A stretch of 64,000 nucleotides of DNA from Bdellovibrionales bacterium (GTDB lineage Bacteria; Bdellovibrionota; Bdellovibrionia; Bdellovibrionales; JAGQZY01), in assembly GCA_031426555.1 (NCBI GenBank), contig JANPLN010000057.1, forward strand, positions 8,706 to 72,705, given 5' to 3'. The notes beneath the pieces are model-generated. The model was given only the letters and a program-made list of their open reading frames with translations, did no database searches and was not told where the DNA came from. Below, piece after piece: positions 15,576 to 63,150 of this stretch. Every line of letters begins with the position of its first letter. Position 1 is the stretch's first letter. The position numbers were made by a program, and so were the translations under genes.

Positions 15576-15577
15576 AA

Positions 15578-17665: not shown

Positions 17666-17712
17666 ATTTGCCCCCCTGTGTACGGATCTAAGTCCCGTTT
17701 TATATACGAATA

Positions 17713-29700: not shown

Positions 29701-31385
29701 GGAGCTCAGCATCCATTGCCATGACAGCTCAAGAAAACTTTACTGGATCTGCTCGTGGCACGGCCATTGATTTCCAAACCACAGCCTTGGGATCCAATGG
29801 ACGGACTACAAAAATGTATCTTACTGGAGATGGATCTTTAGGGCTTGGCACAACCGGTCCCGCCACATTGCTTGACGTGGCTGGGGCGATCACTTCAAGA
29901 CCCAATGGCACAGGCACCGGCCAAACCGGGCAACTGATCCTGCGCGAGCTTGCCGTCGGAGGATCCGAAGCGGCAACTCTGCGTGCACCGGATGCAATAA
30001 CTACAAGCTATGTTCTTACGCTTCCGACATCAGCAGGAAGTTCAGGACAGTTGCTACAGACCGACGGTACGGGAGTTTTAAGCTGGGTTACTGCCGCTGC
30101 GGCAGTGGTAGATGACAGTTTGAGTTTTGATAAGTTTGCAGATTCAATGACATTAGATGTAAGCACGGATATTTCTGCCACTGGTACAAATGTTTTTTCG
30201 ATTACTAATTCTGGGACAGGAGATTCGTTGCGTGTAAACGATGAGGCCGCAGACGCAAGTCCATTTGTTATCACTGCTGCAGGAAATGTGGGTATAGGAA
30301 CAACAACTCCTGCGAACAGGTTGTCAGTGCAAGACGGTGGAATTTCTATTTCAGGTGATATGAGTGTTACGGATCCACAAATAAATATAAACCCAACAGA
30401 TAATCTGACATTTTATACAAATACGGTGGACGAGCGAAAACTGCGCATGTCCATGGCTGCATCTGCAGATACCACCTTCGGATACCAGATTGCATGGTTA
30501 AATAACAACGGAACCCAAAGAAGAGTTGGTGCACTTTACCATAAAGACGGCGATGTTTTTTTTCCTCAGGGAAGTCTTGCTGTCGGAAAGACTTTTCCTA
30601 CTTCACGCTTGGATGTCGCTGGAGCCATAACTTCACGTCCAAACGGAACGGGCACAGGACAAACAGGCCAAATCCTCATGCTCGAACTATTAGCTAACGG
30701 AGCACATAGCGCGACAATTCGTGCGCCCGATTCAATTTCTGCAAACTACACATTAACGTTGCCAGGGGATGATGGCACTAACGGCCAAGTGCTACAAACA
30801 AATGGCAGTGGAGTGCTCAGCTGGGTCAGTTCGGTCGCTCCCGCCGCCGACTCCCTCGATTTTACACACTTCTCCGATACTATGAGCTTGGATGACTCAA
30901 CCGATATTGCCGCAAGCGGTACAAATGTACTTTCCCTCACTAATACCGGCACAGGAAATTCTTTCGTAGTTAACGATGTGGCGAGTGATGCGACTCCCTT
31001 TGTAATTGATCAGAACGGAAATGTGGGCATTGGAACAACTGCTCCGCGAGCGTCACTTGATGTGAACGGAGCAATAACCTCTAAGGCCTCGCTCAGTGTG
31101 GCCTCAACAACTGTCAATTATCTCAGTAACAACCTTGCTCACACCACCCAAAACTGCCAGGCCTATGCTCTGTGGAATTTAAAAGACGGTGCGAATTACA
31201 CGTTTGCGGTGCAGGGCACCTCCTCGTCGACGTGCTCTTTCACCGCCTTTTCGGACGCCGGCGTGACGCCGCTTGCGGTTCGGCTCCCACCGGGACATTC
31301 AGCTACGTACGGTACGTTTCAGACACTTTATTCGTTCGTGGTTCTGGGCACCACAGTCTTTGTCGCCTGGGTAACGGGATACTGA
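26706..31385 (+). CDS. Giant phage-tail-fibre-like adhesin 3 (MAT-like, 1559 aa)
   Basis: Shared N-domain and modules. C-terminal domain similar to fibre 2 (CQAY.L.NLKDGANYTFAV..CSFTAFSDAG). Confidence 0.85.
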   Translation: MMLRFYFSFLKSLLCFFGLCLFLPILATAQTEPPQFMTVDGRLYDSTTPEDPLLDNSVLMKIQILNPAKTCILYEEEQTVSTLSSNGYFNVRVGSPTAGAESLKRTTATIDVGNSMMEVFQNQNASIPGKTAGGAGCGYIPAAGDTRYFRFVVTPSTTAVTSTLSPDMQIDSVPQSLVAETLQGMTPSNFVQTNTDVTQAKVNTLFGASYAGLTGLLAGSSSLYLQNTTNGTVIPNRATNPASPTAGQIWYDSDDFVLRYYDGTSVLTLGTSGGDPTKLPLAGGTMSGAIDMATNDITDIGHMTQAAQRTFRFGVYTTAQQATLVATPLVAGHEGTVWYNTTTNKLMFWDGTAESAVSPVDSVFGRTGAVVAAASDYDAVQIDNTPAGAVAAVTAQAAIDELDSEKVAKAGDTMTGQLNMGPRGVAAGDGGAIAFTELAAGGTNTATVRAPDALGANYVLTLPANDGDSGQYLQTDGNGILAWVTPAGVGETNTASNQGVGGVGVYDAKSGVDLQFRNINAASNKVSVALDAANKEVDINVNEANLDLASIPNTPAGTIAATNAQAAINELDSEKVATARAINTAANSGLAGGGDLSADRSLSVNITGTTAETAVAGTDEILIYDASATALRKMARTNFVLSETEVDAMVSNNGYLSAEVDTLATVTGRGATTATSITLNTQAQARFADSAGGEYAAIQAPATIGANYVLTLPDSAGANGQVLSTNGSGVLSWIAIPSAPVTTVFGRTGAVLAVAGDYTAAQVTNVAGGSVAAVTVQAAIDELDAEKVAKTGDSVSGAITFATQNQARFADSAGGEYAAIQAPTTIGANYVLTLPDTAGSASQVLTTNGAGVLSWTTPSTVPAANSLDFTHFVDAMTLDASTDIAVTGTRVFSITNSGTGNSFLVNDVASDTSPFVIDQSGSVGIGTTAPEFSVHNVTPIADSTPSYVVDAQGNTASTGPAFIGRRARDSAGTPSALQTGDVIAVFGARGYIGGSWATGSSASIAMTAQENFTGSARGTAIDFQTTALGSNGRTTKMYLTGDGSLGLGTTGPATLLDVAGAITSRPNGTGTGQTGQLILRELAVGGSEAATLRAPDAITTSYVLTLPTSAGSSGQLLQTDGTGVLSWVTAAAAVVDDSLSFDKFADSMTLDVSTDISATGTNVFSITNSGTGDSLRVNDEAADASPFVITAAGNVGIGTTTPANRLSVQDGGISISGDMSVTDPQININPTDNLTFYTNTVDERKLRMSMAASADTTFGYQIAWLNNNGTQRRVGALYHKDGDVFFPQGSLAVGKTFPTSRLDVAGAITSRPNGTGTGQTGQILMLELLANGAHSATIRAPDSISANYTLTLPGDDGTNGQVLQTNGSGVLSWVSSVAPAADSLDFTHFSDTMSLDDSTDIAASGTNVLSLTNTGTGNSFVVNDVASDATPFVIDQNGNVGIGTTAPRASLDVNGAITSKASLSVASTTVNYLSNNLAHTTQNCQAYALWNLKDGANYTFAVQGTSSSTCSFTAFSDAGVTPLAVRLPPGHSATYGTFQTLYSFVVLGTTVFVAWVTGY

Positions 31386-31386
31386 T

Positions 31387-34068
31387 ATGAAGCGGAGAAT
31401 CGTTTTTTTTTATCTCCTGATATTTTCATACATTGCCCCAATTCAATCCTCAAACGCTCAAATGACGTTTTTTTCATCCTGGCAAGCGCGGGATCTCCGC
31501 CTCACTTTTACAACAACCGCACAAACGGTTTTTAACAAAAACTGCTCGGCCAGTGTGAGTGTGCGCACGGGAATTGGAACAAGCTTTCCGATAAACGTTG
31601 AAGCTCCTCTCTTTGTCAATTTGAGTAGTAGTAGTGGCACGATGGAATTTTTCTCCGACGAGTCCTGTACGACCTCGGTGGCAGCAGTTACTATTTCTAC
31701 AGGGAGTAACACGTCTTCATTTTATTTTCGAGACTCCGCCGTTACGGGTGCGACAACTTTAACTGCGAGCGCGGCCGGCTACCTCGATGCGACTCAGGCA
31801 GCGACGCTGACCTCTAATCCTTTCTTGTGGACTGGTGCAACAAGCTCCGTCTGGTCCCTCGGTGCAAATTGGTCTGGCCTCACCGCACCCTCATCGGGCA
31901 ACATTGCCGTGTTTGACGGCGGTTGCGTTAACTGCAATACCACATTTACAGCCCATGTGAATGTGCGAGGTTTAAGATTAGATTCGGGTTACTCGGGAAC
32001 GATTCAACAGGATACGACCTATAATTTTACTATCGGCGCTTCGGGGTATGTTCAGGTTGCCGGCACTTTTGCTGGTTCAACCGCCGCCAGCCGTACATTC
32101 AGCGTGTTCGATGGTAGGTCCACCATCGCTGGCGGTAGCTTTACGACTCCCGCCGGAACACTCACCGTCACAAATGGGTGGCGAATATTAGGTAGCCCCA
32201 CCTTCTTAGCACGAGCTGGTTCCACTTTAAATCTAGAGTGTATGTCCACAGGCTATGACTGTAACGGAGGGGGGGTAGACTACGTTTCCGGCACTGTCGT
32301 TTATGAAAATGTGGCGATCAAAGGGCTTAGTTTTATAAACCTCAAATCGAGTGTGTGGACCGTTGACGGCGATCTCACTATAGGGGACCCGAACGGAAGC
32401 AACCGGCCTGTTTACAACGGAAGGTTCAATGTGAAGGGCGATGTCATCGCCTCGGGTCAGGGTAACCGCGGTGATGCGATTATTAATTTGGTTGGGTCCC
32501 CGGCGGGCCAAACGATCATCGGTGGCAACATCGGTTTGCCGTTTATAGAGATCAATGCTGGCATCCATCCAGTCACTTTATCCGGAATCGTAAAAGCGAG
32601 TTCCTACGCCTTTTATAGTGCCGGCGTTTTCACCACGGCAGGGTCTACCTTAGTCATTGGGTGTTTAGAGAGTAATTCCTCCAATTGCACCGAGGTCAAA
32701 AATATCGTTCCCGGGACCGTCACATATAATAACGTCACCTTTCAAACCTATCGCGATTTCTTTGAACTCGGTGGAGGCATTTTCAATATCGATGGCAATT
32801 TGTTGATTTCGACCACTGGCGGTGCAAATTATGGACGGATCAACACTGGGACATTAAAGGTTAAGGGGAATGTTAGTAATGCGGGGACGGGCGGGGATGG
32901 CAGTGCCGTGATCGAGTTGATTGGCAATCCTCTCGGTCAAACCCTTAGTGGAATCGTTGGAGCCATTTACCCGTACATCGAAATCGCGACAGGGGGGAAT
33001 GATGTCACACTCTCTGGATTCATTCGGGTTCAAGGATGGACGGTCACTTCGATCGATGAACTCACAGCGACCGGTTCGACACTCAACATCACATGCCTCA
33101 GCACCAATGTCTCCTGCTATTCAAGTGCCGTGCCTCTTGTGCCTGGAACGGTTAACTACAATAACGTAACAATCTCAGGGCTGCGAACAGGCTACAACCT
33201 GGGTGGCGGCACCTTCAATGTAACAGGCGATTTTACATTTGGCGGGCAGGATTCCCAAGCGGCGAGTAACTATCTTGCCAACGGAACAATCAATGTGACT
33301 GGTCAGCAAATTATTCAAAATAACTTTGGCATGCGTGGCTCCGCGGTCATTAAGGTCGCAGGTCATGCATCCGGGCAGACCATTACAGGAAACAGCCAGA
33401 TGTTTCCCATCATCGAGATCGATGCCGGGTTAAATAACGTGACTTTATCTGGCGGTATTTACGCTATCGGCTGGCGCATGACGACTGTTGGCACGTTCAC
33501 GACTACAGGCTCCACATTACAATTTCGCTGTCCTACAAGTGTTGCTGGAGAGTGTTTTCAGACAACCGTCAACCTGATTCCCGGCACTGTCACCTACAAC
33601 AATGTCGATTTTGTAGGGTCTCGAACTAATTATGATTTGGGCGGAACCTGGAACGTGAGTGGCAATTTATCATTTGGCGACGCAAGTCAAAACACCCGCA
33701 CATTAAGTAACGGGATCTTGCGCGCAACGGGAGATGTGACGATCTCGAACAATGGTCATATTGGTAACGCGCAACTGCAGTTTGTGGGCGGTGGTAGCGT
33801 GAATGTGTCGATTGCAGGCGGTGCGGTGCGACCCACAGGATTAATAACCGTCGCCAAAACGGGTGGTGGATCGGTAACCCAAACAAGCAGCGTTTCCTGG
33901 AGCTCCACCGGTCAAGACATGACCATCACCTCCGGAAGTTGGATCCAGAATACCTTTTCGTTAACGGTAAATGATGTATTGACCATTGGTGCAGGGACTA
34001 CATTAAATCGAAGTGGCGCTACACTAATTTACGGCTCTCTTTCAAACAGCGGAACATTGATCCCGTGA
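31387..34068 (+). CDS. Secreted Ig-like plus repeated beta-helix protein, putative fibre-3 partner
   Basis: Starts 1 nt after the fibre-3 stop. Signal peptide, WTG...W....NWSG, about 3.5 copies of a ~145-aa repeat (GTVTYNNV..GQTI.G..P.IEI..G..VTLSG..GSTL..C..C). Confidence 0.7.
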   Translation: MKRRIVFFYLLIFSYIAPIQSSNAQMTFFSSWQARDLRLTFTTTAQTVFNKNCSASVSVRTGIGTSFPINVEAPLFVNLSSSSGTMEFFSDESCTTSVAAVTISTGSNTSSFYFRDSAVTGATTLTASAAGYLDATQAATLTSNPFLWTGATSSVWSLGANWSGLTAPSSGNIAVFDGGCVNCNTTFTAHVNVRGLRLDSGYSGTIQQDTTYNFTIGASGYVQVAGTFAGSTAASRTFSVFDGRSTIAGGSFTTPAGTLTVTNGWRILGSPTFLARAGSTLNLECMSTGYDCNGGGVDYVSGTVVYENVAIKGLSFINLKSSVWTVDGDLTIGDPNGSNRPVYNGRFNVKGDVIASGQGNRGDAIINLVGSPAGQTIIGGNIGLPFIEINAGIHPVTLSGIVKASSYAFYSAGVFTTAGSTLVIGCLESNSSNCTEVKNIVPGTVTYNNVTFQTYRDFFELGGGIFNIDGNLLISTTGGANYGRINTGTLKVKGNVSNAGTGGDGSAVIELIGNPLGQTLSGIVGAIYPYIEIATGGNDVTLSGFIRVQGWTVTSIDELTATGSTLNITCLSTNVSCYSSAVPLVPGTVNYNNVTISGLRTGYNLGGGTFNVTGDFTFGGQDSQAASNYLANGTINVTGQQIIQNNFGMRGSAVIKVAGHASGQTITGNSQMFPIIEIDAGLNNVTLSGGIYAIGWRMTTVGTFTTTGSTLQFRCPTSVAGECFQTTVNLIPGTVTYNNVDFVGSRTNYDLGGTWNVSGNLSFGDASQNTRTLSNGILRATGDVTISNNGHIGNAQLQFVGGGSVNVSIAGGAVRPTGLITVAKTGGGSVTQTSSVSWSSTGQDMTITSGSWIQNTFSLTVNDVLTIGAGTTLNRSGATLIYGSLSNSGTLIP

Positions 34069-36256: not shown

Positions 36257-36407
36257 ACTCTTGATCGCAGACAGGAGTCGCGATTCGTCAGGCTTTTTTA
36301 CGTCTCAGTTTACGTTCTAAACTGAGACACTCGAGACGAAAGGGGTTTTTGGATTTAATCTAGATCCCTTGTGTGATATCCTTGAATCGGTTCTCGGGGG
36401 TGAGTGT

Positions 36408-37724
36408 ATGTTCAGAATTTTTGTTCTGTTTATTTGTATAAGTTTATTAGTTGTAGGATTTCAAAATTGTGGAAATGACTTTAAATCCTCAGTTCTAAGC
36501 AATAACCAATCACCAAGCGATTCCCCCGATTGTCTCGAAATCCAGTGTTCTGCTGGACAGGAAGTTGCATGTGATGTGGCAAACGGTTCCGGGGTAAAAG
36601 TGTGGACTGGTTCCGACTACGGCATGTGTGCCGTTAAGAGCTGCCTTTCTGGTTACCAAATATTACAAACCTACTGTGTTCCTGTTCCGCCTGCGCAACC
36701 CTTCGTACCAAAACCAGAAAGCTTGAGAGCCTCCGCTCAAAAGTATAATCTTTTTATGGGAACGGCGATCCATCCCCATTTGTTAACTTTAGAGCCAATG
36801 TACGCACAAACCGTTGCCGAGAATTACAATCTTATCGTGGCGACAAACGTGATGAAGTGGCAGCCGCTTCGCCCTGCCGAGAATACTTATGATTTCAAAA
36901 TAGCCGATGAGTTGGTTGAGTTTGCAATACGCTATCATCAAAAAGTGCACGGCCATACGTTGGTGTGGCATAATCAAAACCCACCGTGGCTCGTCAACGG
37001 CAGCTTTTCTGCCACCGAAAAACAAATGCTTTTAAAAAATCACATTCAAACGGTGATGAAACATTTTAAAGAAAAGTATCCTGAAACAATAATATCGTGG
37101 GACGTTGTGAATGAAGCATTTCTCAATAGCAACGCCGAAGTTTCAGCAAGTTCGGACGGTGGATACCGTAAAACAATTTGGTCTGATATATACGCCTCGC
37201 CCGAGGAGTACATTCGACAATCGTTTTTATGGGCTCGCGAGGCAGACCCTGCGGCACTTTTATATTACAATGATTTCAGCAACGAAGACTTGGGTGCGAA
37301 ATCCACGGCAATTTATTTGATGGTGCAAAAACTAAAGTCGCAGGGAACACCCATCGACGTGGTAGGCATGCAAGTGCATTTGAGCACAGATTACGGAGTT
37401 CCTACAGTGGCCACCCTTCGGCAAAACATAGCACGATTAAAAGCCATCGGTGTGAAGGTGCACTTTACAGAACTTGATGCGCGAACCAACAGCGCTGACG
37501 GGATTAGCGCCATAGAATCGCAAAAGCAGACTCAAATTTACGCCAATATTGTCGATGCCTGCCGGTTGGAGGCGGGCACATGTCTCGGTGTGACAACCTG
37601 GGGATTCACCGAAAAACACTCTTGGATTCCACAATTTTTCCCTGGCTATTCGGCATCACTACCGTTTGATCTGAACTACAAGCCCACTGCCAACTTCGAG
37701 ACTATTAAAAGTCGGCTGCCATAA
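36408..37724 (+). CDS. GH10 endo-beta-1,4-xylanase-family lipoprotein
   Basis: FQNC lipobox, Cys-rich linker, NVMKW, HGHTLVWH, WDVVNEA (acid/base), YNDF, FTELD (nucleophile), TTWG. Confidence 0.9.
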   Translation: MFRIFVLFICISLLVVGFQNCGNDFKSSVLSNNQSPSDSPDCLEIQCSAGQEVACDVANGSGVKVWTGSDYGMCAVKSCLSGYQILQTYCVPVPPAQPFVPKPESLRASAQKYNLFMGTAIHPHLLTLEPMYAQTVAENYNLIVATNVMKWQPLRPAENTYDFKIADELVEFAIRYHQKVHGHTLVWHNQNPPWLVNGSFSATEKQMLLKNHIQTVMKHFKEKYPETIISWDVVNEAFLNSNAEVSASSDGGYRKTIWSDIYASPEEYIRQSFLWAREADPAALLYYNDFSNEDLGAKSTAIYLMVQKLKSQGTPIDVVGMQVHLSTDYGVPTVATLRQNIARLKAIGVKVHFTELDARTNSADGISAIESQKQTQIYANIVDACRLEAGTCLGVTTWGFTEKHSWIPQFFPGYSASLPFDLNYKPTANFETIKSRLP

Positions 37725-49720: not shown

Positions 49721-49898
49721 AACTGAGTCCTTAATTTAATTCTTATTTCTTTTTTCTAAAAAATTCAGTTTTTAAATGGTTCTAAAAACGAGTTCCGCAG
49801 GCTCCTGCCGAGGACTGTTCGAGGCTTTTAGGACTATTTAAAAACTGAATTTTTTAGAAAAAAGAAATAAGAATTAAATTAAGGACTCAGTTTTACTT
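49715..49898. repeat. Long inverted repeat element A
   Basis: 49715-49777 pairs perfectly with 49836-49898 (63 bp), extendable to 73 bp with two G-T pairs. Structured 38-nt loop. Confidence 0.95.
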
Positions 49899-52875
49899 TG
49901 CGGATGACGTGGTTATTTCTGTCACTGATGTAAAGATCGCCTTGGTCGTCGAAAGAAACGTCCACAGGGTTGTTAAGTGGAACTGTGGTTGCACCAACGC
50001 CCTCTTGCTCCATGCCCGCAGGACCGCCAGAGAGGTTGACGGCCACAGGGCGCCCGGCCACCGTGTTCACACGCCCATCGGTGCGGTTGATACAGCGCAC
50101 GTTGTGGCGACCAAAGTTTGCAAAACACAATCGACCATTGAAATAATCCAGCCCCATGGGATTGTCACAGCGTGAGCTCGTGGCGAGAATATTTTCGGAA
50201 GTGCTTCCGCCGGTTCCAGAAAAACACGCGATGGTCACCACACGTCCGGGGTCGATGGTTTGCGGGCCAAAAGTCACCTGTGAGGCGCTTCGATTCCAGT
50301 AGCGAATTTTGTTGTTAAAAGTGTCGGAGATGATCAAATTTCCAAACTCATCTATAGCGATGCCATGTGGTCTGTTCATTTCCAAAGCGGCAACCAAAAG
50401 GTCGTGGCCGCTGTCGGTGGGTGTGACGTCTCCGCAGTTGCCAAGAACAAACGAAGTGTTGCCAAGAGTATCCACTTTTTTTACGCAGTGGTTAAATTGA
50501 TCGACAACAAAAATTTCCATGCTGCCGGCATTGTTGTACGCGATGACGTCTGAAGGAAAATTCATCAGCGAAGAGAGAGCCACTCCGGCGGGACCGTTTC
50601 CAGCAGCCACAGCGTAGTTTCCCGCGATGCTTGAAACAAGGTCGTCGGGGATATAGATGCTCGCGTAGTTGTCGGGCGTTGTTTTACGATTCCATACCCG
50701 CAGATTATGCACTCGTGAATTGAGTTGCAACAAACTTCCATCCGGAAAAAGGCCGATCCCATTCATCTGGTTATTTGTTCCATTGAGGGCCGTAAACATC
50801 AAAGCATTGGTCGGAAAATCGTTATCGAGAACGGGATTTCCCTGACCGCGGCCAAGGGCGGTGACAACACGACCGTATTTATCAATGCTGCGAATTCGAC
50901 TGTTATCCTGATCAACAAAGAACAACGTATCTGTGGAGTTTTCGTAAACCAGTCCATTGGGTCGATTAAAAATATAACCAAGAGTTGGTTTTTGGTTGTC
51001 GCCGTTAAATCCGCTACGTCCATTGCCCGATCCAACAACAACTTCAACGCTGTTGTCTGTGAGATTTAAGCGACGTAAACGATAGTTGTTGTAATCGCTA
51101 AAAACCAGAAAGTTACTGTCAGTGGGATCCACAGTGAGCATGTAGGGTTCACTGATTTGCGCATTGTTAATGGCTATGTCGGAGCCATTGTAGCCTGCGG
51201 CAATGTTAGTGAAACGACCGGTTGTTTTCTGTGTGATGGTGATGCCGCCAATGGTGACGTCGGCTGCTGAGTTATTGGAAAGGTAAAAACGATCGTTGTT
51301 CCCGTCGCGAATATTAAAATAAATAAGATCACCAAGAACGGCCAAACCACTGGGACTTCCTATTGCGATGGCTAAACTGTTTCCACTTACGGTAGCGCCA
51401 CCGGCACCGGTTCCGATGATGGTGCGAACTGTATTTGCAGCCACAGTCGTCGCGCTGGCTGTTGCGGTCCAGAAAAGTTTTCCAACTCCAGTGAGGTTTA
51501 CTAGGCGAATACGGTGCTGCGCCATATGTGCTACATAAATTCCGTCGGCATTGACGACGATGTCGTACGGGCTTTGCCCGCCCGCGGCCGTCGGTGCTGA
51601 GCCGTCGGCTCCCATGGTGTTTGTGCCATTTCCATAAACGGTATAAGCTAAGTCTGTGGCAATGTCCCAGCGCTTAACGCGATGACTGCCATAACAGGCC
51701 ACGTAAAGACTTCCGGAGTACATGTAGAGAGTCGTGGGGGTGGTGCATTGATGTGTAGAGGCGGGAGCACCATCAACATTACTTGCGGCTGCGCCCATGC
51801 CTGTGTACATCATTCCCGAAGCATCCACATAGCGAACACGATTCCCGGTATGATCAGAGATGTAGAGTATCTCTCCGACATCATCATACCAAAGTCCGCG
51901 AGGGCGGTTGATGGCTGTGACAGTAGCCATTCCGTCTGCACCGGTAGAATACTCGCCAGTGCCGGCGACCACTTTAAAAGTGTTTGCAGGGATTGTGGTA
52001 CCAGCGCGATCTACCGACGACGCTGTTCTGTTCCAGTACCACACGACGGCGTTATCGTAGTCAGCAATAAAGTAATTTCCGAGAGCATCCTGAACTTGTG
52101 CGATGGGACGAATGCGAATGGAGGTTGGATTGGTTGCAGGGTTTTCATTGTCTCCGAGGCTGGGATTGCCACCGTAAGTACAAATTTGTCCTTGAGTGAG
52201 AACGTTACAGGCTTGTGGAAAGTGATTCACTTCGACGGTCCAAGAAAACGTATCGCTAGCACTGCCGTCGTTGACCACCACCGAAACGGTGGCGGCGCCG
52301 ACATAGGCGATATAACCTGTGAGGGTGGCACTGTTGCCAGAGCCGATGAGCAGTCCTGAGGCCGCACCATTTAAGAGCCACGTGTATGTCAGCGTATCTG
52401 CGTTAGCATCGGTGCCGGCTGCGGTAATGAGGATGCTCGATCCCACCGACACTTTTGGCATTCCCGTCGTCACGCCTGTGACGCTGGGTGGAGAATTGAT
52501 TTTAACGTTCCAAATTTTTTGTGCACTGGTTTCGCCGTCGGCCGCTTGCATTCGAAGAGTATGATTTCCTATATTCCCACCGTGAGCCAGCACCGTGTGT
52601 GTGTCTGTGATGTTCGATTGATTCACACCATCAAAATACCAGGAGTAGGTAAGGGTTCCGCCAAATGGTGCAACCACATCCACTTCAAACAACTGGTTGT
52701 TGCCCAGTTCGATAATGATAGGGTCCCCTTGGGGATCAAAATCTTCGATGGTGACGCTATCAACATTGGAATTGCCGCCGCCGCCACTTTGCAATAGATC
52801 AAGACTGTCATCTTTTTTACAAGATAAGATAAGGAACGTTGATAGTACCAAGATGAAACGTACAGCAAACACCAT
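49879..52875 (-). CDS. Large lipoprotein with Ig-like domains and NHL beta-propeller repeats (adhesin-like)
   Basis: LILSC lipobox from ATG 52875, Ig-like TLTYSW/TLTYTW, many NHL repeats (P.G...D..GN..I.D..N..IR). Confidence 0.8.
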   Translation of the reverse strand: MVFAVRFILVLSTFLILSCKKDDSLDLLQSGGGGNSNVDSVTIEDFDPQGDPIIIELGNNQLFEVDVVAPFGGTLTYSWYFDGVNQSNITDTHTVLAHGGNIGNHTLRMQAADGETSAQKIWNVKINSPPSVTGVTTGMPKVSVGSSILITAAGTDANADTLTYTWLLNGAASGLLIGSGNSATLTGYIAYVGAATVSVVVNDGSASDTFSWTVEVNHFPQACNVLTQGQICTYGGNPSLGDNENPATNPTSIRIRPIAQVQDALGNYFIADYDNAVVWYWNRTASSVDRAGTTIPANTFKVVAGTGEYSTGADGMATVTAINRPRGLWYDDVGEILYISDHTGNRVRYVDASGMMYTGMGAAASNVDGAPASTHQCTTPTTLYMYSGSLYVACYGSHRVKRWDIATDLAYTVYGNGTNTMGADGSAPTAAGGQSPYDIVVNADGIYVAHMAQHRIRLVNLTGVGKLFWTATASATTVAANTVRTIIGTGAGGATVSGNSLAIAIGSPSGLAVLGDLIYFNIRDGNNDRFYLSNNSAADVTIGGITITQKTTGRFTNIAAGYNGSDIAINNAQISEPYMLTVDPTDSNFLVFSDYNNYRLRRLNLTDNSVEVVVGSGNGRSGFNGDNQKPTLGYIFNRPNGLVYENSTDTLFFVDQDNSRIRSIDKYGRVVTALGRGQGNPVLDNDFPTNALMFTALNGTNNQMNGIGLFPDGSLLQLNSRVHNLRVWNRKTTPDNYASIYIPDDLVSSIAGNYAVAAGNGPAGVALSSLMNFPSDVIAYNNAGSMEIFVVDQFNHCVKKVDTLGNTSFVLGNCGDVTPTDSGHDLLVAALEMNRPHGIAIDEFGNLIISDTFNNKIRYWNRSASQVTFGPQTIDPGRVVTIACFSGTGGSTSENILATSSRCDNPMGLDYFNGRLCFANFGRHNVRCINRTDGRVNTVAGRPVAVNLSGGPAGMEQEGVGATTVPLNNPVDVSFDDQGDLYISDRNNHVIRKVKLSP

Positions 52876-52883: not shown

Positions 52884-52911
52884 TTATCGGACGAAAGTCC
52901 TGAAAACTAAA
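52884..52911 (-). promoter_or_regulatory. Internal sigma28-like promoter of the NHL lipoprotein
   Basis: Minus strand TTTAGTTT...TCCGATAA, 8 nt before ATG 52875. Confidence 0.5.
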
Positions 52912-53461
52912 ACTCAAGGCCCGCCCCCAGCAAGAGGTTGATTTGTGTGGCCTTGCCTTCGTCGGCGCCAAAAAGCATATCGTATCGAGTTTCGAAATTT
53001 AAAAACCAGTCTGTCCCAATTTGATAATCCACGCCTGCAGCTAAACCAGTGCCTAAAAATGTGGTCGAAAAAATAAAGTTAAAAGTTCTTTGGCGAAGGT
53101 GAAGGCCCACATAGGGTCGCCAGATTTCAGTCATGGAGATTTTAACATTTTCGGTCTGTGTGACAGTGCTCGTGGCCGCCGTGAAAGGGTAGTAATTGGC
53201 ACCGGCGTCGATACCAAATCCCTGACTTCCCGAAATACCATCACTCATAATCATGTTGAAACCTAAACAAGCATTTAAACTTTCTGTGGCGGCGTAAGAT
53301 AATTGCAGGCTGTAAGCACCAACACCAGACGCAGAATCATCATTGGCGCGAATACCCGAGGTTGCAAATGACCATGTCCCTGCTTTGGCAGATAGCTGAA
53401 AGTTTTCAGCCCACGCTGCTGGAAGTTGAATCATAAAAAGGTAGAAAAAAAGCAGTCTCAT
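52907..53461 (-). CDS. Small outer-membrane beta-barrel (OmpA/OmpW-like)
   Basis: Signal peptide, amphipathic strands, RPYVGL, GVDYQI...FLNFETRY, C-terminal GAGLEF. Confidence 0.75.
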   Translation of the reverse strand: MRLLFFYLFMIQLPAAWAENFQLSAKAGTWSFATSGIRANDDSASGVGAYSLQLSYAATESLNACLGFNMIMSDGISGSQGFGIDAGANYYPFTAATSTVTQTENVKISMTEIWRPYVGLHLRQRTFNFIFSTTFLGTGLAAGVDYQIGTDWFLNFETRYDMLFGADEGKATQINLLLGAGLEF

Positions 53462-55119
53462 TACGCGGCTTTCTCTTCGCTTTGCGGAGTTGCATCGATC
53501 CGAGCTACGACGGCGTCCATGATCGATCGAACTTTTCGTTTTGCCAAAGTCTTTTGTTCTAAAATTGCATTACCTTTGGGCTGCTGAGCAAAAATCTCGC
53601 GCAATCGAAAGCGTTGGCGATCGGTAAGACTTTCAAAGAGCTTGTGTCCTTCTACGCGTTCACAATCTGGAAGAATAAACGAAAGCTCTTGTACTGGTAT
53701 CTCCTGAATGACTAAGTTAAATTGTTCTTGGTTTAAGTCGAAAAATTTGTAAAAAGGTGTTCGCTTGGCATGCAAAGGAGACTGGGGAGAGAGGGCTTTG
53801 TAAAACTCTCTTTCATCCCATGTGTTCGCATGATCTAAATATTTTTCGATTTCAGTTTCGTTAAAAAATGAGTCGATGGACTGGGCGTTTCTTAAAGGTT
53901 TAATGTCTAAGGATTTTTGCTGCACTTGTTTAATGGTGGTTGGAGAAATTTTTGCTTTTGTAGTTTGCGGTTCAATAAACTGTGCCCAATTGCCGGGAAA
54001 TAACTTCTTACAAACACGCACCGACTTATTTACCGGCAGCAGATGTAGAATTGGTGCCGACGTCTGAAATGGATAGTCGCGGAAGACAGTTTCCAGTTCT
54101 TCTTCGTTCAGTCGGTTTAAAATTAAAGCGAAATCTTTAGTCTCAGCGTCCATTAAAGAGGTAGTACTCAGCAATTGATTCTTAATTTTGAGGCGATGCA
54201 ACTTGTGGAGAACTTCGAGCGAGTCCCCGGACACTTGCGGTGCCGTCGCTAGCGCTGTAAACCACCAATCACCCACACCAAAAGCAAACAGCTCTTTTAG
54301 CTTCTCTTTTTTCATCTCGGCAAACAAAGCGGTCATTGCGGTTGGATTCTGTGTTCCTTCTTCTTCCAAAAAGTCCATGAGATCAATGGAAGGACGCTCA
54401 AAGAGGTCTTTTGTTTCCTCGAAGACCTCTTTGTAAAGGCGGCGCGCTTCGTAAGAACTATCATGCCGTCCTGCGGACGGTGCTAAAGTCTTTGGAGCCG
54501 TTGCCGCGGAAAAATTTTGTGAGGCCAAACTTTGAGTTGATTTTCCAATTTCTGAGATGGGAGTCGAAAGTCCTTTAATTAAACTTCGCACACTCCATTG
54601 CATGAGGACAAACAACCCGATGAGTCCCGCGGCAACCATTCCCAAAATAAACTTCCACCAGTTAACGGCCTCTTGGATAGGACCTGGGACAATGGGTTTG
54701 GGTGGTATTTTTTTGATCTCAATTTTATCAGAGGCTGTAGAAAGTTTTAAAAATTCAAAAAGTTGGTTATGGAGTGCATTTAACTCGTTGGCTTCCATTT
54801 CGGTTTCGAGATCAACTTTGATGGCAACTTTGTCAACGTAGCTGATAAGTGTACTGAGAGGAACGTCCTGCTTAGACCAGATATCTTGTTCCTTGTCGAC
54901 AACATCAAAATATGGCAAGTTTTCGGACTGGGATTTTTTGCTCTCAGGCTTATCAATGTTGACGATAGCAAGTACTGTGAAAGGTTGATTTGGAAAACGA
55001 CTTTGAATAAATTTCGAAGTTCTTTCGGTGTAGTAATCTTCCACTTCCGAAACGCGATTTGCAAAAGCCAACGGCGTGGAGAGAATAATTAATAGGACGA
55101 GGGAGTAAAGGTGTTTCAT
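53461..55119 (-). CDS. Membrane protein with FliF-ring-like periplasmic domain and FliG-like C-terminal domain
   Basis: Signal peptide, periplasmic alpha/beta domain, one TM (WWKFILGMVAAGLIGLFVLMQW), helical cytoplasmic part ending FYKFFDLNQEQFNLVIQEIPVQELSFIL...KLFESLTDRQRFRLRE (FliG_C-like pattern). Confidence 0.55.
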   Translation of the reverse strand: MKHLYSLVLLIILSTPLAFANRVSEVEDYYTERTSKFIQSRFPNQPFTVLAIVNIDKPESKKSQSENLPYFDVVDKEQDIWSKQDVPLSTLISYVDKVAIKVDLETEMEANELNALHNQLFEFLKLSTASDKIEIKKIPPKPIVPGPIQEAVNWWKFILGMVAAGLIGLFVLMQWSVRSLIKGLSTPISEIGKSTQSLASQNFSAATAPKTLAPSAGRHDSSYEARRLYKEVFEETKDLFERPSIDLMDFLEEEGTQNPTAMTALFAEMKKEKLKELFAFGVGDWWFTALATAPQVSGDSLEVLHKLHRLKIKNQLLSTTSLMDAETKDFALILNRLNEEELETVFRDYPFQTSAPILHLLPVNKSVRVCKKLFPGNWAQFIEPQTTKAKISPTTIKQVQQKSLDIKPLRNAQSIDSFFNETEIEKYLDHANTWDEREFYKALSPQSPLHAKRTPFYKFFDLNQEQFNLVIQEIPVQELSFILPDCERVEGHKLFESLTDRQRFRLREIFAQQPKGNAILEQKTLAKRKVRSIMDAVVARIDATPQSEEKAA

Positions 55120-56078
55120 TGGTCGTCTCCAGTATCTTGAGAATCATTTAAAAACTTGTATAAAAAGTTATTGTGAATCCAGTTAGATTTCTTCACTTGT
55201 GATTTTTTAGCTTCTGATTGTCGTACTTCTTTTTCTTTGATAAAGCTCGCAGTCGTGCGAGTTTTAGAGCGGGCAGGCAGCCATTGAACTTGTGAGGGCA
55301 GTAGCTCGCTCATGTTATTGCAGTTAATTTTGGCTGCTGGCTGCATTTCACAAAGGGTACGGAACTTGATGGATTCGTTTTCGAGAGCCTGATTATGAAT
55401 CCGTTCGGTGCTGTCCAACGGTTCGATCACGATGACAATCTTTCGGTCGGACTTTCGAACTGCAGCCGGCAACCGTCTTTCGGAGTGTTCCGTTTCACCG
55501 TAACCTCCAATTCGCATGTCTGATAGCTTAAGACCTCGTTCCTTCAGGTAGCGAATCGCAGAAATCGAACGAAAAGCAGAAAGTTCAAGATTGTCTTTAT
55601 AAATAGGGTGTTTTCCAGGAGATTTGTTGTCGGTGTAACCACGCACCACGTAACGAAACTGCCCAGTGAAATCCTTTGCTTTGGTAGCAAAAGTTGTCAG
55701 AGCTTTCTTTCCCTCATCGGTAAGATCGATAGCGCCGGCCTCAAAAAATGATATTCCTGGAAACTCAATAATCAGTTTATTACCCACCTGCAAGGGCAAC
55801 ACCTCGACATCTTTGGCTAAAGGATGAAAGAGAGCGAGGGGAACTTCTTGTTGGCTTTGTTGTTCCTTGGGAGTGTCTGTGGTTTTTAACTGATTTTTAA
55901 ATTTATCGAGCAATATCTGAATATTTAAAGGATCATTTTTGACATTAAAAAAAATAACAAAAAATCCCAAAAGAAGCGTTACCATATCCCCATAACTGAT
56001 TTCCCAGTTATTATGGATCTCAGCAGTATGCAGCTGAGATCGGATTCGAAAGCTTTTTCGGGCATTATTTGTCTTCAT
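55116..56078 (-). CDS. motB: MotB/PomB-family stator subunit
   Basis: WEISYGDMVTLLLGFFV TM with conserved Asp. OmpA-like PG-binding domain GYTD..NLELSAFR..GYGE..DRKIVIVI. Confidence 0.85.
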   Translation of the reverse strand: MKTNNARKSFRIRSQLHTAEIHNNWEISYGDMVTLLLGFFVIFFNVKNDPLNIQILLDKFKNQLKTTDTPKEQQSQQEVPLALFHPLAKDVEVLPLQVGNKLIIEFPGISFFEAGAIDLTDEGKKALTTFATKAKDFTGQFRYVVRGYTDNKSPGKHPIYKDNLELSAFRSISAIRYLKERGLKLSDMRIGGYGETEHSERRLPAAVRKSDRKIVIVIEPLDSTERIHNQALENESIKFRTLCEMQPAAKINCNNMSELLPSQVQWLPARSKTRTTASFIKEKEVRQSEAKKSQVKKSNWIHNNFLYKFLNDSQDTGDDQ

Positions 56079-56860
56079 ACTGCTTCTTTAAGTCCTAACA
56101 AGTCTATTTTTTTATTTTTTTCTAAATAACTATTCATCATTTCCTGCACGGCGAGTGGCGAACGTTTTTCGCAAATCATTAATATGCCTTCCAGGAGTAA
56201 CTCTTTGCGAATTTTTTCGCCGTCGGCTTTGGAAGCGAAATGTTCAGCAAAGGGTATCAATACAAAGTTCGCTAACAGAAGTCCGTAGAGTGTGGCGATA
56301 AGAGCAAGAGCCATTTTGAGGCCAACTTCGGCAGAGCTCACATTGGCACCCATACCCCGCATCATATTAATCAACCCTAAAACAGTACCTACGAGTCCAA
56401 AAGCGGGGGGATATTTTGCTAGATTTCGCAAAATGGTTACGTTTTTTTCTTCTCGTTGTCGTTCCCGATATATTCTTTCTGTGAGTACGTCGCGAATCTC
56501 ATCTTGCGAAAGACCAGCAACAATCATGTCCGCTCCATCGCGTAACATTTCGTGAGCTTCCTTGTCTTGCGCCAAGCCTTTTAAGTGGGCAGAGTTTGTG
56601 ATGGACAGCGAAGCGGCTTGAATAATTTTTTGTGCATCAAAGGCGTAATCCTCTTTTGCTGTTTTTGAAAGCGCAGGCAGGGATTTTATCATGTTCCAGC
56701 AATCTTTGGCGGAATAGGAAATCATGGAAACGGCAACAGTTCCACCGAGAACAACAAGCAGTGCCACGTGGTCAAAGTAAAACTCAAATTGACCACCCAA
56801 AAGTGAGAGAACTGTTTGTACCAAAGCGACAATGGTTGCAATACCAAGTAAGTGAAACAC
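56075..56860 (-). CDS. motA: MotA/PomA-family stator subunit
   Basis: ALLVVLGGT, PPAFGLVGTVLGLI, MALALIATLYG..LAN...PFA, EGIL.I.....P. Confidence 0.88.
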   Translation of the reverse strand: MFHLLGIATIVALVQTVLSLLGGQFEFYFDHVALLVVLGGTVAVSMISYSAKDCWNMIKSLPALSKTAKEDYAFDAQKIIQAASLSITNSAHLKGLAQDKEAHEMLRDGADMIVAGLSQDEIRDVLTERIYRERQREEKNVTILRNLAKYPPAFGLVGTVLGLINMMRGMGANVSSAEVGLKMALALIATLYGLLLANFVLIPFAEHFASKADGEKIRKELLLEGILMICEKRSPLAVQEMMNSYLEKNKKIDLLGLKEAV

Positions 56861-57480
56861 TATAGACCTCCGCTGGAGGATGAGTTTGCGGGCTGTCGCG
56901 TAAGGCGATCCAAAATAACTCGTGTTTCCACATTTTCGGGTTCTAAAGTGAGAGCCTTTTGATAGGCATTAATGGATTCCATAGTTTTTCCCTGAAGATA
57001 GTAATTGTTACCTAAAAGATTCCAACCCACGGAAAAATACGGATACGTATTTAGCATACTGCGTGTGAGCACTTCGGCCTGAATATATTCTTTTTTAAGG
57101 AGTGATGATTGTATTTGTGCCACTTGCCGAGCTATGGATTCGATGGTTGCCTTAACGTCGGGATCGTTGAGTTTTAATTCGGCTTTCGAAATTTCTTGTA
57201 GCTTCACAGATACCTCGCCGCTAGCGGAAAGGGCTCTTTTTTCGAGCATAATTTTTTGCTGTAAAAAATCAGGTTTGCTGACTTCGATCGTAAAGCCTTC
57301 GGGAAGAGAGCGGAGTTGATCATGGCTGAGTTGCAGTGGAGTGACACCCAGTTTTTGTGCACCATTAAGTGTATGAAGCGTGACTTCGGCCTCGGGAGGT
57401 GTGGAGTTCACACGCAGCGACAGGCTGCTGCAGTTGACGATAAATAACAAGAATATAAAACCCAGAATAATCTGAAACAT
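56860..57480 (-). CDS. PEGA-domain plus TPR lipoprotein
   Basis: IVNC lipobox, VNSTPPEAEV..LGVTPL (PEGA), WNLLGNNYY..G....SINAYQKAL.LEP (TPR), GAGGTG RBS. Confidence 0.8.
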   Translation of the reverse strand: MFQIILGFIFLLFIVNCSSLSLRVNSTPPEAEVTLHTLNGAQKLGVTPLQLSHDQLRSLPEGFTIEVSKPDFLQQKIMLEKRALSASGEVSVKLQEISKAELKLNDPDVKATIESIARQVAQIQSSLLKKEYIQAEVLTRSMLNTYPYFSVGWNLLGNNYYLQGKTMESINAYQKALTLEPENVETRVILDRLTRQPANSSSSGGL

Positions 57481-61394: not shown

Positions 61395-62765
61395 CTAAGG
61401 TCGAATGACAGTGCCCTTGGTGTTGTTTCCAAAAATACCATTATCACTCTCATCATAAAGATTTGTTTGATTACTCCGAAGCAATACGGTCGGAGATGGA
61501 TTGTGTTCAAAAACACTTTTTCCAATTTCAACGACTGTTTCAGGAATAATGATACGACTTATGTTATTTTTTGCGAAAGTCCAGGTACCTATAATTTTAA
61601 GACCGTTATGCAATGTGACCTGATTTAATCGATTTTTACTAAATGCTGAATTCGCTATAAGGGTGACTGATCCTGGAATTTCTACTGTCGTTAAAAGGTT
61701 ATCACGAAATGCCGCAATGGAAATCATCGTAACCGTATCAGGAATTGTGATAGATCGAAGGCGATTAGCCGTGAATATTCCCAATGGTATTTGAGTCATC
61801 CACCGCGGAAAAATAAAGCGCTCCATAAGATTATCAGCGAATGCACTCTCACCGATTTCGACAACGGTTTCGGGGAGTACAATAGATGTTAATTGGTTGT
61901 TATAAAATCCTCCCTTACCGATTTTAAGTAAAGTCTCTGGAACTTCCAAAGTGGATATTTTATTGTAGGAGAAAGAAAATTCGCCAATCCTAAGTAAAGT
62001 TGGAGGAATTATCAATTCTGAGATTTCATCCTTTGCAAAGGCACCTGCTCCAATGCTTCGGATATGGTCAGGAATATCTAGTTGTTCTATCTTATTTCCT
62101 TTAAATATTTCAGTTGGAATATAGGTCAAAGACTCAGGTATATGAAATCTAGTAATTTGATTATTTTCAAAAATACCGCCATACCACTCTTCAACAGTAG
62201 GTGGTAGATCAACGAAAGTAAGGTTATTATCTGCGAAAGCAGTGTAACTGATTACCTTAACCGAGGGCGGAATTTTAATCTCTGTAAGGTCGTTGTTTTC
62301 AAATGCACTAGTACCTATATATTTCAGAGAACTGGGTAATTCAACTCGCGCAAGATGGTTATCGCGAAACGCACGGTGCCCAATAAATTCTACCCCGGGT
62401 GGTATATGCACTGATGTAAGGCCTTTTCCAGAAAATGCATTGTCAGCGATTATGGTCACACCAGGGGGTATAATAACGTTTCGCTCATCACATATAAAAT
62501 AATTTAATTTTCCATCTTTTATCTTGAAGCAATCAAGATTGGTGGATTGACTGGGGGATGCGTTTGAGGGCTCGCTATTGCCTTTATCAGCGCCAATGGA
62601 CACGTGGCTGACATCACTTGTGGCCCCCGGAGAATTTGTCGGCACAGAAGGCTCATTGCTGATTTCTTTATTTTGAGATTCAGCAGATTTGTTGTCCGCT
62701 TTGTCAAAGCATGCCGAAAGGCAAACCAAGAGAGGTACCAGAGCAGTGATTCGTGAAATGTTCAT
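61395..62765 (-). CDS. BspA/TpLRR-type leucine-rich-repeat lipoprotein
   Basis: LSAC lipobox from MNISR, about 15 repeats of LTS..IP..V..IG..AF..N. Confidence 0.9.
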   Translation of the reverse strand: MNISRITALVPLLVCLSACFDKADNKSAESQNKEISNEPSVPTNSPGATSDVSHVSIGADKGNSEPSNASPSQSTNLDCFKIKDGKLNYFICDERNVIIPPGVTIIADNAFSGKGLTSVHIPPGVEFIGHRAFRDNHLARVELPSSLKYIGTSAFENNDLTEIKIPPSVKVISYTAFADNNLTFVDLPPTVEEWYGGIFENNQITRFHIPESLTYIPTEIFKGNKIEQLDIPDHIRSIGAGAFAKDEISELIIPPTLLRIGEFSFSYNKISTLEVPETLLKIGKGGFYNNQLTSIVLPETVVEIGESAFADNLMERFIFPRWMTQIPLGIFTANRLRSITIPDTVTMISIAAFRDNLLTTVEIPGSVTLIANSAFSKNRLNQVTLHNGLKIIGTWTFAKNNISRIIIPETVVEIGKSVFEHNPSPTVLLRSNQTNLYDESDNGIFGNNTKGTVIRP

Positions 62766-63150
62766 TTTTTTCTCCAGAAGAAAATCAATTATAAAATTTA
62801 AATTTTGATCACGTAGTAGAACAATACCATATTTGGAAATAGATTTCACCTGTGATGATTTTACACAGATTGCCCAAAAACTGCATTCCCTTTTGAATAG
62901 AGTTCAACCTGTCGTAAAAACCCATTAAATCATCATTTTTCTTTAAATGCGAGTACCCTTGGGCGGCGAAGCGATTTCTGCGAAGTTCCGAGTGCAGTTT
63001 CCAACGCACATATCGAAATTCTATATTTCTTTTCAGCGCGGTCTTTGATCACAAAGCTAAGGTTTGCAGCGCGCCAACTGGCTACTAAAGTTCTAAAGAC
63101 ATGACCAGGCTCAGGCAATAATAATCCTGCTCAACCAAGCGTACACACTT

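Follow-up and report, generated by a model that had tools for sequence, protein, structure and literature searches.

A 64,000-nucleotide stretch of the genome of a Bdellovibrionales bacterium (contig JANPLN010000057.1; this whole stretch is referred to as the window here) encodes on its minus strand a protein, called X in the following, that appears to be a natural single-chain homologue of two flagellar rotor proteins. Predicted structure and remote sequence similarity support the view that X joins the C-terminal third of FliF, i.e., the third ring-building motif (RBM3), the second transmembrane helix (TM2), and the tail, to a complete FliG. An earlier note, made from the letters of the window alone, had described the gene as a fusion of RBM3, a transmembrane (TM) helix, and FliG behind a cleavable signal peptide, and had proposed that it is a natural one-chain rotor without the FliF parts that house the export gate. 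The open reading frame (ORF) exists exactly as given there, with the quoted peptide stretches in its translation, and the FliF-FliG one-chain architecture is upheld by the predicted folds together with remote profile signals. As for the one-chain rotor, the architecture and the homology stand, while ring formation and rotation are steps that we infer. The gene and the parts of its product are as follows:

53461..55119, minus strand: gene X itself, 552 amino acids, ATG start
55060..55119, minus strand: Sec-type signal peptide as judged from sequence, X residues 1-20, with cleavage predicted between AFA and N
54697..55059, minus strand: RBM3-like alpha-beta-beta-alpha-beta domain in the predicted structure, X residues 21-141
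54859..54957, minus strand: acidic loop, X residues 55-87, standing at the position of the FliF beta-collar
54595..54663, minus strand: single TM helix, X residues 153-175, a hydrophobic stretch followed by basic residues (cytoplasmic side)
54172..54459, minus strand: predicted first FliG-type armadillo domain (FliG_N position) with a long connecting helix, X residues 221-316
53785..54147, minus strand: FliG middle-domain-like armadillo region, X residues 325-445, including an MgtE_N-like stretch
53491..53763, minus strand: FliG_C-like domain by structural match, X residues 453-543
53578..53628, minus strand: predicted torque helix, X residues 498-514, whose pattern of charges is conserved

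We modeled X with AlphaFold2 from a 17-sequence alignment, which yielded a model with a mean predicted local distance difference test score (pLDDT) of 74 that is confident outside the linkers. In this model the 552 residues are laid out as signal peptide, RBM3-like domain, TM helix, and FliG-like N, M, and C domains. A Foldseek search of the whole model against the PDB gave five hits at an E value of ≤0.001, all five of them full-length FliG with 320-349 aligned columns; many chains of the FliF MS-ring rank below FliG, with a probability of 1.00 and E values of 0.14-0.4. VIA-align was run on the top 971 Foldseek chains for the whole model. The structural comparison suggested in the earlier note, made here with these two programs on the AlphaFold2 model, thus matches both FliF RBM3 and FliG, and the folds obtained are not, as that note had allowed for, those of an MgtE_N-like domain only.

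The part of X behind the TM helix comprises ~377 residues and is mainly helical in the model, in agreement with the ~370 helical residues described before. Its FliG_C-like end, also proposed in that description, is borne out by the match of X 453-542 to FliG_C of Thermotoga maritima (1qc7_B; Z 12.8; root mean square deviation [rmsd], 1.7 Å; 88 of 89 residues), and X 455-542 matches in the same way FliG_C from a MotAB-bound complex (8ucs_H; Z 11.0; rmsd, 2.0 Å; 86 of 88 residues). The pLDDT of this region is mostly 85-91. When the middle domain is included, X 328-542 aligns with the FliG middle and C domains of 8wo5_B5 (residues 104-320) at Z 11.9 and an rmsd of 9.9 Å over 192 residues. The segment at the position of FliG_N was folded alone (X 215-332, with 36 relatives; pLDDT 85) and compared with 48,161 chains, among which the top match was full-length FliG 3hjl_A (Z 8.1; 104 residues aligned), the next non-FliG chain reaching Z 5.5 and further FliG ARM_M and ARM_C chains Z 4.3-5.3. 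Foldseek on this segment alone retrieved nothing at an E value of ≤0.001, with FliG rows at E 2.6-5.2. Identity between X and FliG in the structural alignments is ~15%, and a profile-profile comparison with hhalign of the X family (142 members) and 24 FliG proteins paired X 160-544 with FliG 23-336 (P 0.0016; probability, 16%). As far as the model goes, these results support the presence in X of three FliG-like armadillo domains in N-M-C order, which would together take up ~330 residues.

Sequence profiles of the relatives of X also point to FliG. The family profile, searched against the PDB, found T. maritima FliG_C at E 0.0086, and the Pfam model FliG_C matched 10 of 17 relatives at E ≤ 0.1 and 26 of 86 at E ≤ 0.01 (best, 6.1e-08). 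The sole Pfam match of the window protein itself was MgtE_N (residues 327-382; E 0.0022; 19 bits versus a cut-off of 25.9), a model that also matched 10/17 and 8/86 of the relatives. Taken by itself, this match would allow the cytoplasmic part of X to be a mere MgtE_N-like helical domain, Mg2+ sensing or regulatory, on a membrane anchor and without any part in torque. We consider this very improbable: the helical fold is common to MgtE_N and the FliG middle domain, the match is confined to residues 327-382, and FliG matches are much stronger and extend over ~320 residues (MgtE 2yvx_A reaches Z 3.8 with X 215-332). The C-terminal 90 residues, in addition, fit FliG_C at the 1.7 Å given above and bear conserved torque-helix charges; FliG_C is the commonest Pfam match among the relatives; no CBS or transporter domain of MgtE was found in X with Pfam; and the gene is coupled to motAB.

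The charges of the predicted torque helix are conserved across 133 aligned sequences, with an acidic residue (D/E) at position 500 in 114, at 508 in 84, and at 514 in 102, and a basic residue (K/R) at position 501 in 132, at 503 in 103, and at 511 in 99. In the HMMER alignment, X 501 faces the torque-helix Arg of T. maritima FliG and X 508 its first Asp; the second acid of the T. maritima helix faces a hydrophobic residue in X. The E. coli equivalents of X 501 and 508 we take to be R281 and D288. Excerpts of PMC12505986 name R281 and D288/D289 of E. coli FliG as stator contacts. A near-invariant R453-x-P455-F456, together with F460, aligns in hhalign to the MFxF hinge of FliG.

On the periplasmic side, the RBM3-like domain is composed in the model of helix 23-41, strand 47-54, loop 55-87, strand 97-104, helix 110-124, and strand 132-137. 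The split RBM3 that the earlier note had read by eye from the sequence is recovered here, as FliF RBM3 provides the best structural matches, with Z scores of up to 11.4 that span both halves of the split motif. X 14-141 aligns with Vibrio FliF RBM3 (8z5v_A, residues 255-452) at Z 11.4 and an rmsd of 3.2 Å over 98 residues, X 18-141 with Salmonella FliF RBM3 (6sd1_A, residues 231-438) at Z 10.8 and 3.1 Å over 96 residues, and the periplasmic domain with FliF 7cg7_A at Z 11.1. In all, FliF RBM3 matches came from 18 PDB entries at Z 10.0-11.4, with 93-110 residues aligned (19 entries at Z 9.5-11.4). Moreover, hhalign of 142 X members and 28 FliF proteins of the phylum found X 19-240 colinear with FliF 210-507 (P 6.5e-5; probability, 64%), an alignment that takes in RBM3, TM2, and the tail and that sets the TM helix of X, covered in the model by helix 155-184, against FliF TM2. 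The claim of one TM helix following the RBM3 part was confirmed, with its hydrophobic residues at 153-175 and basic residues behind.

The claim of a much shortened beta-collar also holds, with a 33-residue insert exactly at the collar position. This strongly acidic loop has a low pLDDT of 37-45 and compares with ~110 residues in the beta-collar of FliF, a figure based on the hhalign gap and on general knowledge. It ranks among the best-conserved parts of the X family, with a conserved set of L68, P69, Y or F at 70, D79, W81, and D82; among the 133 sequences, W81 is found in 133, P69 in 132, L68 in 129, D/E79 in 124, and D/E82 in 115. The loop may serve for docking or form a crown that binds metal. 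In line with the proposed absence of FliF parts, X has no match to PF01514 (YscJ_FliF, RBM1/RBM2), and its mature periplasmic part of ~130 residues forms a single domain. An N-terminal TM anchor of the FliF type was not seen in X, which starts instead with MKHLYSLVLLIILSTPLAFA followed by NRV, a sequence shaped like a Sec signal peptide. In 14/17 aligned relatives, position -3 keeps a small residue and position -1 an Ala. For the cleavable signal peptide claimed before, the signal-like N terminus and the -3/-1 pattern were thus found, and cleavage itself is probable from this sequence pattern.

X belongs to a conserved family. A word-indexed search retrieved 16 full-length relatives of 552-581 amino acids and 24-91% identity, and its repetition with a 133-sequence profile returned the same 16 proteins and nothing further. 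An exhaustive profile search over 1.84 billion representatives, clustered at 50% identity, yielded 241 clusters at E ≤ 0.001, of which 207 lie at E ≤ 1e-10 and 171 at E ≤ 1e-30; among the 150 clusters listed, nearly all proteins have 540-630 amino acids and are aligned end to end. Given this conservation across relatives and genomes, X is a real gene, and a chance ORF is ruled out. By profile search, X is present in 56 of 401 sampled Bdellovibrionota genomes and in 37 of 203 genera, as a single copy each and with partial matches in 2 of the 56 genomes; a locus search with the single protein also placed one relative in a metagenome-assembled genome of an uncultured member of the Pseudobdellovibrionaceae. 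The relatives are unnamed or called "hypothetical protein" in their source records.

Some observations on this distribution may be added. One of the partial matches (G111:C107:13099-13791) covers profile positions 331-558 and has an in-frame TAG, and the other (G344:C68:7347-7883; E 3.7e-10) covers positions 1-168 only; either may be broken or cut by the contig end. G164, a complete 3.77-Mb genome, is the sole carrier of X among 26 sampled genomes of its genus, so that the gene and its module are patchy even inside one genus.

Within an operon of closely packed genes on the minus strand, X takes the fourth place; the other members are, in order of transcription around X:

56860..57480, minus strand: TPR/PEGA lipoprotein, first gene of the module, with an N-terminal PEGA-like part and C-terminal TPR repeats
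56075..56860, minus strand: MotA/PomA-like stator A subunit, 261 amino acids (PF01618, 8.8e-27)
55116..56078, minus strand: MotB-like stator B subunit, 320 amino acids (MotB_plug, 4.1e-08; OmpA, 8.8e-09)
52907..53461, minus strand: small outer membrane (OM) beta-barrel protein, 184 amino acids, with a signal peptide (PF13505 OMP_b-brl, 4.2e-07)
49879..52875, minus strand: lipoprotein with NHL repeats and Ig-like domains (TEN_NHL, 2.7e-13; NHL, 3e-11)

The module thus runs from the TPR/PEGA lipoprotein through MotA, MotB, X, and the small OM barrel to the NHL-repeat lipoprotein. The first four junctions read, in order, TAGTG (where the stop of the TPR/PEGA gene overlaps the start of motA), ATGA, ATGA, and TAATG (where the start of the barrel gene overlaps the stop of X); with ATGA overlaps at both the motA-motB and the motB-X junction, X is translationally coupled. 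The TPR/PEGA protein matches the Pfam models TPR_1 (2e-07), TPR_11, and TPR_CcmH_CycH, and weakly PEGA, and a simple regular expression found a lipobox in 13/18 N termini of this gene. A scan for promoters and terminators gave counts equal to those in shuffled sequence and was uninformative. As for sequencing runs that contain this DNA, the single one listed is a DNA run from a freshwater sediment metagenome, which may be its source, and no RNA run was among them.

We assessed the conservation of this arrangement in 30 short loci, with flanks of 1.5 kb, and in 18 extended loci (the window and 17 others, with flanks of 8 kb and clustering of the encoded proteins). The order MotA-MotB-X-OMP is kept in 28/30 short loci, the exceptions being one at a contig end and one without an OMP match; MotA and MotB lie upstream of X in 29/30, the barrel lies downstream in 29/30, and an NHL protein is present in 21. 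In the extended loci, TPR was found in 18, MotA in 17, MotB in 17, X in 18, the barrel in 15, and NHL in 17, and in L032, where crude ORF picking had missed MotA and MotB, both were found by tblastn. A dedicated motA-motB pair and a conserved envelope module, neither of which was part of the earlier note, strengthen the reading of X as a rotor.

Two of the neighboring proteins have features of their own. The NHL ORF as listed starts with TTG at 52971 and overlaps the barrel gene by 65 nucleotides; its likelier start is the ATG at 52875, ~30 nucleotides past the barrel gene, which gives a lipobox ILSC followed by a Gly-rich tether. Homologues of this protein have 1000-2450 amino acids, most with a lipobox and a Gly-rich linker. 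The MotB-like protein carries, past its OmpA domain, a C-terminal extension of ~100 residues rich in Lys, Ser, and Gln (residues ~221-320; window 55116-55420), which is absent from most homologues (205-360 amino acids).

The stator proteins encoded next to X are recognizable and divergent. Among NCBIfam models, the X-linked MotA matches PomA at 1.9e-37 with 129 bits versus a cut-off of 341 and stays below every curated cut-off; a profile of 16 X-linked MotAs matches, over the full length, the solved stators 6ysf_E (4.3e-46), 8ucs_C (7e-46), and PomA 8bri_A (1.2e-35). In a maximum-likelihood tree of 43 MotA rows, from which five identical rows had been dropped beforehand and in which two TolQ/ExbB rows served as outgroup, the 17 X-linked rows (16 genes, with the window gene entered twice with different starts) formed one clade with support of 99/99. 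This clade is nested in flagellar-type MotAs, as the sister of another paralogue group of the phylum. Judged from these sequence comparisons, the X-linked MotA is a divergent flagellar type. The MotB-like protein comprises a plug, a TM helix, and an OmpA-like peptidoglycan-binding domain, and its NCBIfam matches to MotD and MotB are below threshold (MotD, 76 versus 283 bits).

Several results weigh against the interpretation of X as a FliF-FliG rotor. First, the alpha-beta-beta-alpha-beta fold of its periplasmic domain is common, OsmC-like proteins reaching Z 7-8.3, with OsmC at Z 8.3 as the best unrelated fold. YscJ_FliF_C has no match to the window protein at E ≤ 1 in Pfam and matches 0/86 relatives at E ≤ 0.01, so that the RBM3 assignment draws on the structure prediction, on a single profile-profile comparison, and on weak leads; a match of this model to the X homologue of G041 (E 0.0058) has 18.4 bits versus a cut-off of 23.8. 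No FliG model of Pfam matches the window protein at E ≤ 1, NCBIfam added no match for X alone, and no match of the window protein attains a Pfam gathering score, the 19 bits of MgtE_N included. The profile search recommended in the earlier note came out in part, with FliG_C found among the relatives, YscJ_FliF_C in none of the 86 at E ≤ 0.01, and MgtE_N alone on the window protein. Second, the FliM-binding motifs of FliG, EHPQR and GGxG, are not conserved in X: the EHPQ columns face the variable residues X 350-353 (D/P, Q/K, E/D, E/D) and the GG columns face residues other than Gly, the register of this remote alignment being approximate, and the family alignment with FliG makes no FliM-binding site evident in X. 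Third, the charges of the stator that would face the torque helix, which in E. coli MotA are the cytoplasmic Arg and Glu R90/E98, are not evidently kept. Where the window MotA is poorly aligned with PomA 8bri_A, its Ile and Ala stand opposite Arg88 and Glu96 of the latter, and these columns vary among the 16 X-linked MotAs; other charges near that stretch of the window MotA are K94, D99, E101, D108, and D111.

Self-association bears on the question from both sides. We predicted the assembly of four copies of X residues 21-141 from a 133-row alignment, together with three controls, and obtained an interface score (ipSAE) of 0.43 (runs of 0.43, 0.43, and 0.45), compared with 0.00 for the best control. 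The runs share at least 91% of their contacts, which lie between helix 1 plus strand 1 of one copy and both helices, 1 and 2, of the following copy, and partner pLDDT is at least 74. The mark of 0.42 used for ipSAE is reached by 20/30 solved one-chain pairs and by 1/23 solved single chains, a calibration that is only rough for X, given that X was run with an alignment made here and with four copies versus two in the calibration. The score thus lies barely above the mark (0.43 versus 0.42), does not distinguish a ring from a small oligomer, and may reflect likeness to FliF, given that FliF RBM3 rings have already been solved. Within the model, the result supports self-association of the periplasmic domain, with a closed ring or an oligomer order lying outside this prediction.

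Such a score would also fit a protein that forms no ring. X could be a monomer or a small oligomer and work as a force transducer, much as TonB or TolA do, with MotAB gripping FliG_C on the cytoplasmic side so as to move or strain X, and the periplasmic domain passing the energy on to one of the envelope proteins (TPR lipoprotein, OM barrel, or NHL protein). TonB and TolA engage their stators via a TM helix, not a FliG torque helix, and the best structural matches of the periplasmic domain of X are all ring-forming FliF RBM3; furthermore, the three FliG domains, which polymerize into a ring in flagella, are all retained in X. The module does hold envelope proteins in place of a rod or a filament, a closed ring is not indicated by a self-association score so near the mark, and other motors of the MotA/ExbB family, as is generally known and also stated in excerpts of PMC12505986, use single-pass partners and OM targets. 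On balance, we regard a force transducer without a ring as unlikely, and a ring of X driven by its own MotA/MotB stator as fairly probable.

The remaining point against a rotor separate from the flagellum is the distribution of FliF, which is present in 55/55 other X-bearing genomes compared with 28/46 genomes in an even sample of the phylum, so that a link to the flagellum is possible. X and its MotAB might then be accessories of the ordinary flagellar motor, e.g., additional stators together with a ring that scaffolds or parks them; each genome has 1-4 flagellar-type MotA matches, the X-linked copy included, and TPR proteins are known to scaffold stators in some flagella, as with PflA/PflB of Campylobacter. 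We consider this distinctly improbable. The genome of the window has a separate ordinary fliF-fliG pair on contig C9, and the module stands outside any flagellar gene cluster, with no further flagellar genes in the window beyond it and no fliM, fliN, export-gate, rod, or hook genes found near X. In the genomes for which both places are listed, X and fliF either lie on separate contigs or, within one contig, are separated by 12 kb to >2 Mb, and X is found in only 56/401 genomes. Known basal bodies, moreover, have no place for a second ring of the FliF/FliG type. As the families with X are flagellated throughout, phylogeny alone may account for the co-occurrence, which would then merely reflect which families carry X.

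We also considered the linked MotAB as the flagellar stator of the genome and rejected it, as a canonical motA is located elsewhere, on contig C39; its product passes the curated flagellar-stator cut-off (280.5 bits versus 237), and the remaining six MotA/ExbB proteins tested in this genome are TolQ/ExbB-like. In G164, MotA genes were located at C1:128390, 2913422, 3173282, and 1086008, i.e., three flagellar-type paralogues besides the X-linked one.

The proposed rotor X can be compared with several known systems. With flagellar FliF it shares a colinear RBM3, TM2, and tail, with flagellar FliG the three domains including FliG_C and the conserved torque-helix Arg and acid, and with the flagellar stator the pairing with a four-TM MotA and a MotB bearing plug and OmpA domains. 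Unlike flagellar FliF and FliG, X is one chain without TM1, RBM1, and RBM2, and has a 33-residue loop in place of the collar; FliG of flagella is soluble and separate, its gene accompanying fliF, fliM, and fliN, whereas the FliG part of X is fused behind a TM helix. The ring of FliF has ~33-34 subunits. FliF-FliG fusions in Salmonella are reportedly functional, and the engineered Salmonella and Vibrio fusions have in common with X a covalent 1:1 chain of FliF and FliG, but they are laboratory constructs of full-length FliF in a complete flagellum, whereas X is natural, has own stator genes, and is without two-thirds of FliF. For the Vibrio fusion, excerpts of 10.1101/2023.02.06.527414 and PMC11481574 report that it forms rings whose S-ring (RBM3) was solved; its chains 8z4d and 8z4g are among the VIA-align matches of X.

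A natural fusion has been described from the Chlamydiaceae, where, according to excerpts of Bergeron 2016 (PMC4768692), FliF and FliG are joined in a protein of ~330 amino acids with two TM helices, an RBM2, an RBM-like region, and only a FliG_M-like tail. Like X, it is a natural and shortened FliF connected to a FliG-like sequence outside the setting of a full flagellum; unlike X, it has in these excerpts neither a FliG_C torque domain nor a linked MotAB described, the two being compared by description only. X thus differs from both the engineered and the chlamydial fusions by its RBM3 as the only RBM, by a signal peptide in place of TM1, by a complete FliG part, and by its own MotAB. Among non-flagellar motors, ExbBD-TonB, TolQR-TolA, AglRQS-Glt, GldLM, and ZorAB resemble the X system in that an ion-driven stator-like unit stands beside a specific partner and envelope proteins and serves a non-flagellar output, and the Agl-Glt gliding machinery, too, is associated with TPR proteins and OM barrels. 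These motors of the MotA/ExbB family, however, use TolQ/ExbB-type or other A subunits and TM or periplasmic shaft contacts, whereas the A subunit linked to X is of the flagellar type and its partner bears a FliG torque domain. In the searched full-text literature, which does not extend to subscription-only papers, we came across no description of an RBM3-TM-FliG protein with motAB linked to it.

The following mode of action is the most likely one. After removal of the signal peptide, X would expose its RBM3 to the periplasm, cross the membrane once, and hold its FliG part in the cytoplasm. The RBM3 domains would then pack side by side into an inner-membrane ring like the flagellar S-ring, and the FliG-like domains would form a cytoplasmic ring below it, with the charged torque helix facing outward. 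The co-transcribed MotA/MotB units would be anchored to peptidoglycan via the OmpA-like domain of MotB, and ion flow would turn the MotA pentamers (MotA5B2) that push on the torque helices of X, so that the ring rotates. As RBM1/RBM2, the beta-collar, the export gate, the rod, and the FliM-binding motif are missing, this rotor would be without export and, given the missing FliM contacts, without a switch. Its output would probably pass through the acidic periplasmic loop to envelope partners, namely, the TPR/PEGA lipoprotein, the OM barrel, and the NHL lipoprotein. The topology, the predicted folds, the torque-helix charges, the dedicated stator lineage, the translational coupling, and the conserved module are supported by our analysis, and cleavage, the ring, its rotation, the direction of force, and the coupling to an output are steps that we infer. 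A rotor function of X is a well-founded proposal in this sense, with ring formation and rotation as its conditional parts. The broader proposal, which we put forward more tentatively, is that of a free-standing, non-flagellar, ion-driven rotary machine, in which a high-order ring of one protein in the inner membrane, turned by its own MotA/MotB lineage, would be connected by an acidic periplasmic crown and the TPR/PEGA protein to the OM barrel and the giant NHL lipoprotein.

Elsewhere in the window, four large plus-strand ORFs of 1809, 2566, 1559, and 893 amino acids (6059-11488, 17873-25573, 26706-31385, and 31387-34068) have no Pfam match at E ≤ 1e-5 and lie in stretches of higher G+C content (~0.52 versus 0.43-0.47). 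The minus strand encodes adjoining DUF1552 (HXXSHH) and DUF1588/DUF1592 (PSCyt3/PSD4) proteins at 13932-17716, and there are a GH10 glycoside hydrolase at 36369-37724 (E 1.2e-88) and a BspA-type leucine-rich-repeat protein at 61395-62849 (E 2.1e-71).

A lookup in a protein atlas provided leads, as yet unverified, on the wider occurrence of this architecture. It lists automatically named clusters that join FliG_C, FliG_M, and YscJ_FliF_C, with those of the FliF_C-FliG type from Elusimicrobiota, Cloacimonadota, Pseudomonadota, and Myxococcota, along with YscJ_FliF_C proteins of ~220 amino acids that stand alone. The atlas neighbors of the N-terminal 185 residues of X are stand-alone proteins of ~217-242 amino acids, with scores all below 0.9 that make them leads only; in these clusters, which come from Elusimicrobiota, Pseudomonadota, and Fidelibacterota, 25-89% of the members carry YscJ_FliF_C, which hints that the stand-alone proteins could be split forms of the same system. 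If the leads hold, the architecture of X would be widespread and merely unstudied.

The module would represent a re-use of flagellar rotor and stator parts in a minimal non-flagellar setting. To our knowledge, work on the interface between the FliG torque helix and MotA has so far been confined to the full flagellum, whose assembly needs ~25 other proteins. If it is a natural one-chain rotor with its own stator, X would open torque generation to structural and single-molecule studies in a minimal system, and it would be a case of a flagellar-type rotor and stator working without a type III export apparatus, a rod, or a switch. It would be evidence that a core of FliF, FliG, and MotAB can be useful without export gate, rod, hook, and switch, which bears on the evolution of the flagellar motor; the role of rotor proteins that lack a filament is raised as a question in excerpts of bioRxiv 10.1101/2024.12.05.626484. 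For the predatory Bdellovibrionota, the finding would be a pointer to an envelope machine: if true, it would be a new kind of envelope-spanning rotor that might serve, e.g., the movement of a surface adhesin, surface motility, or contact with prey.

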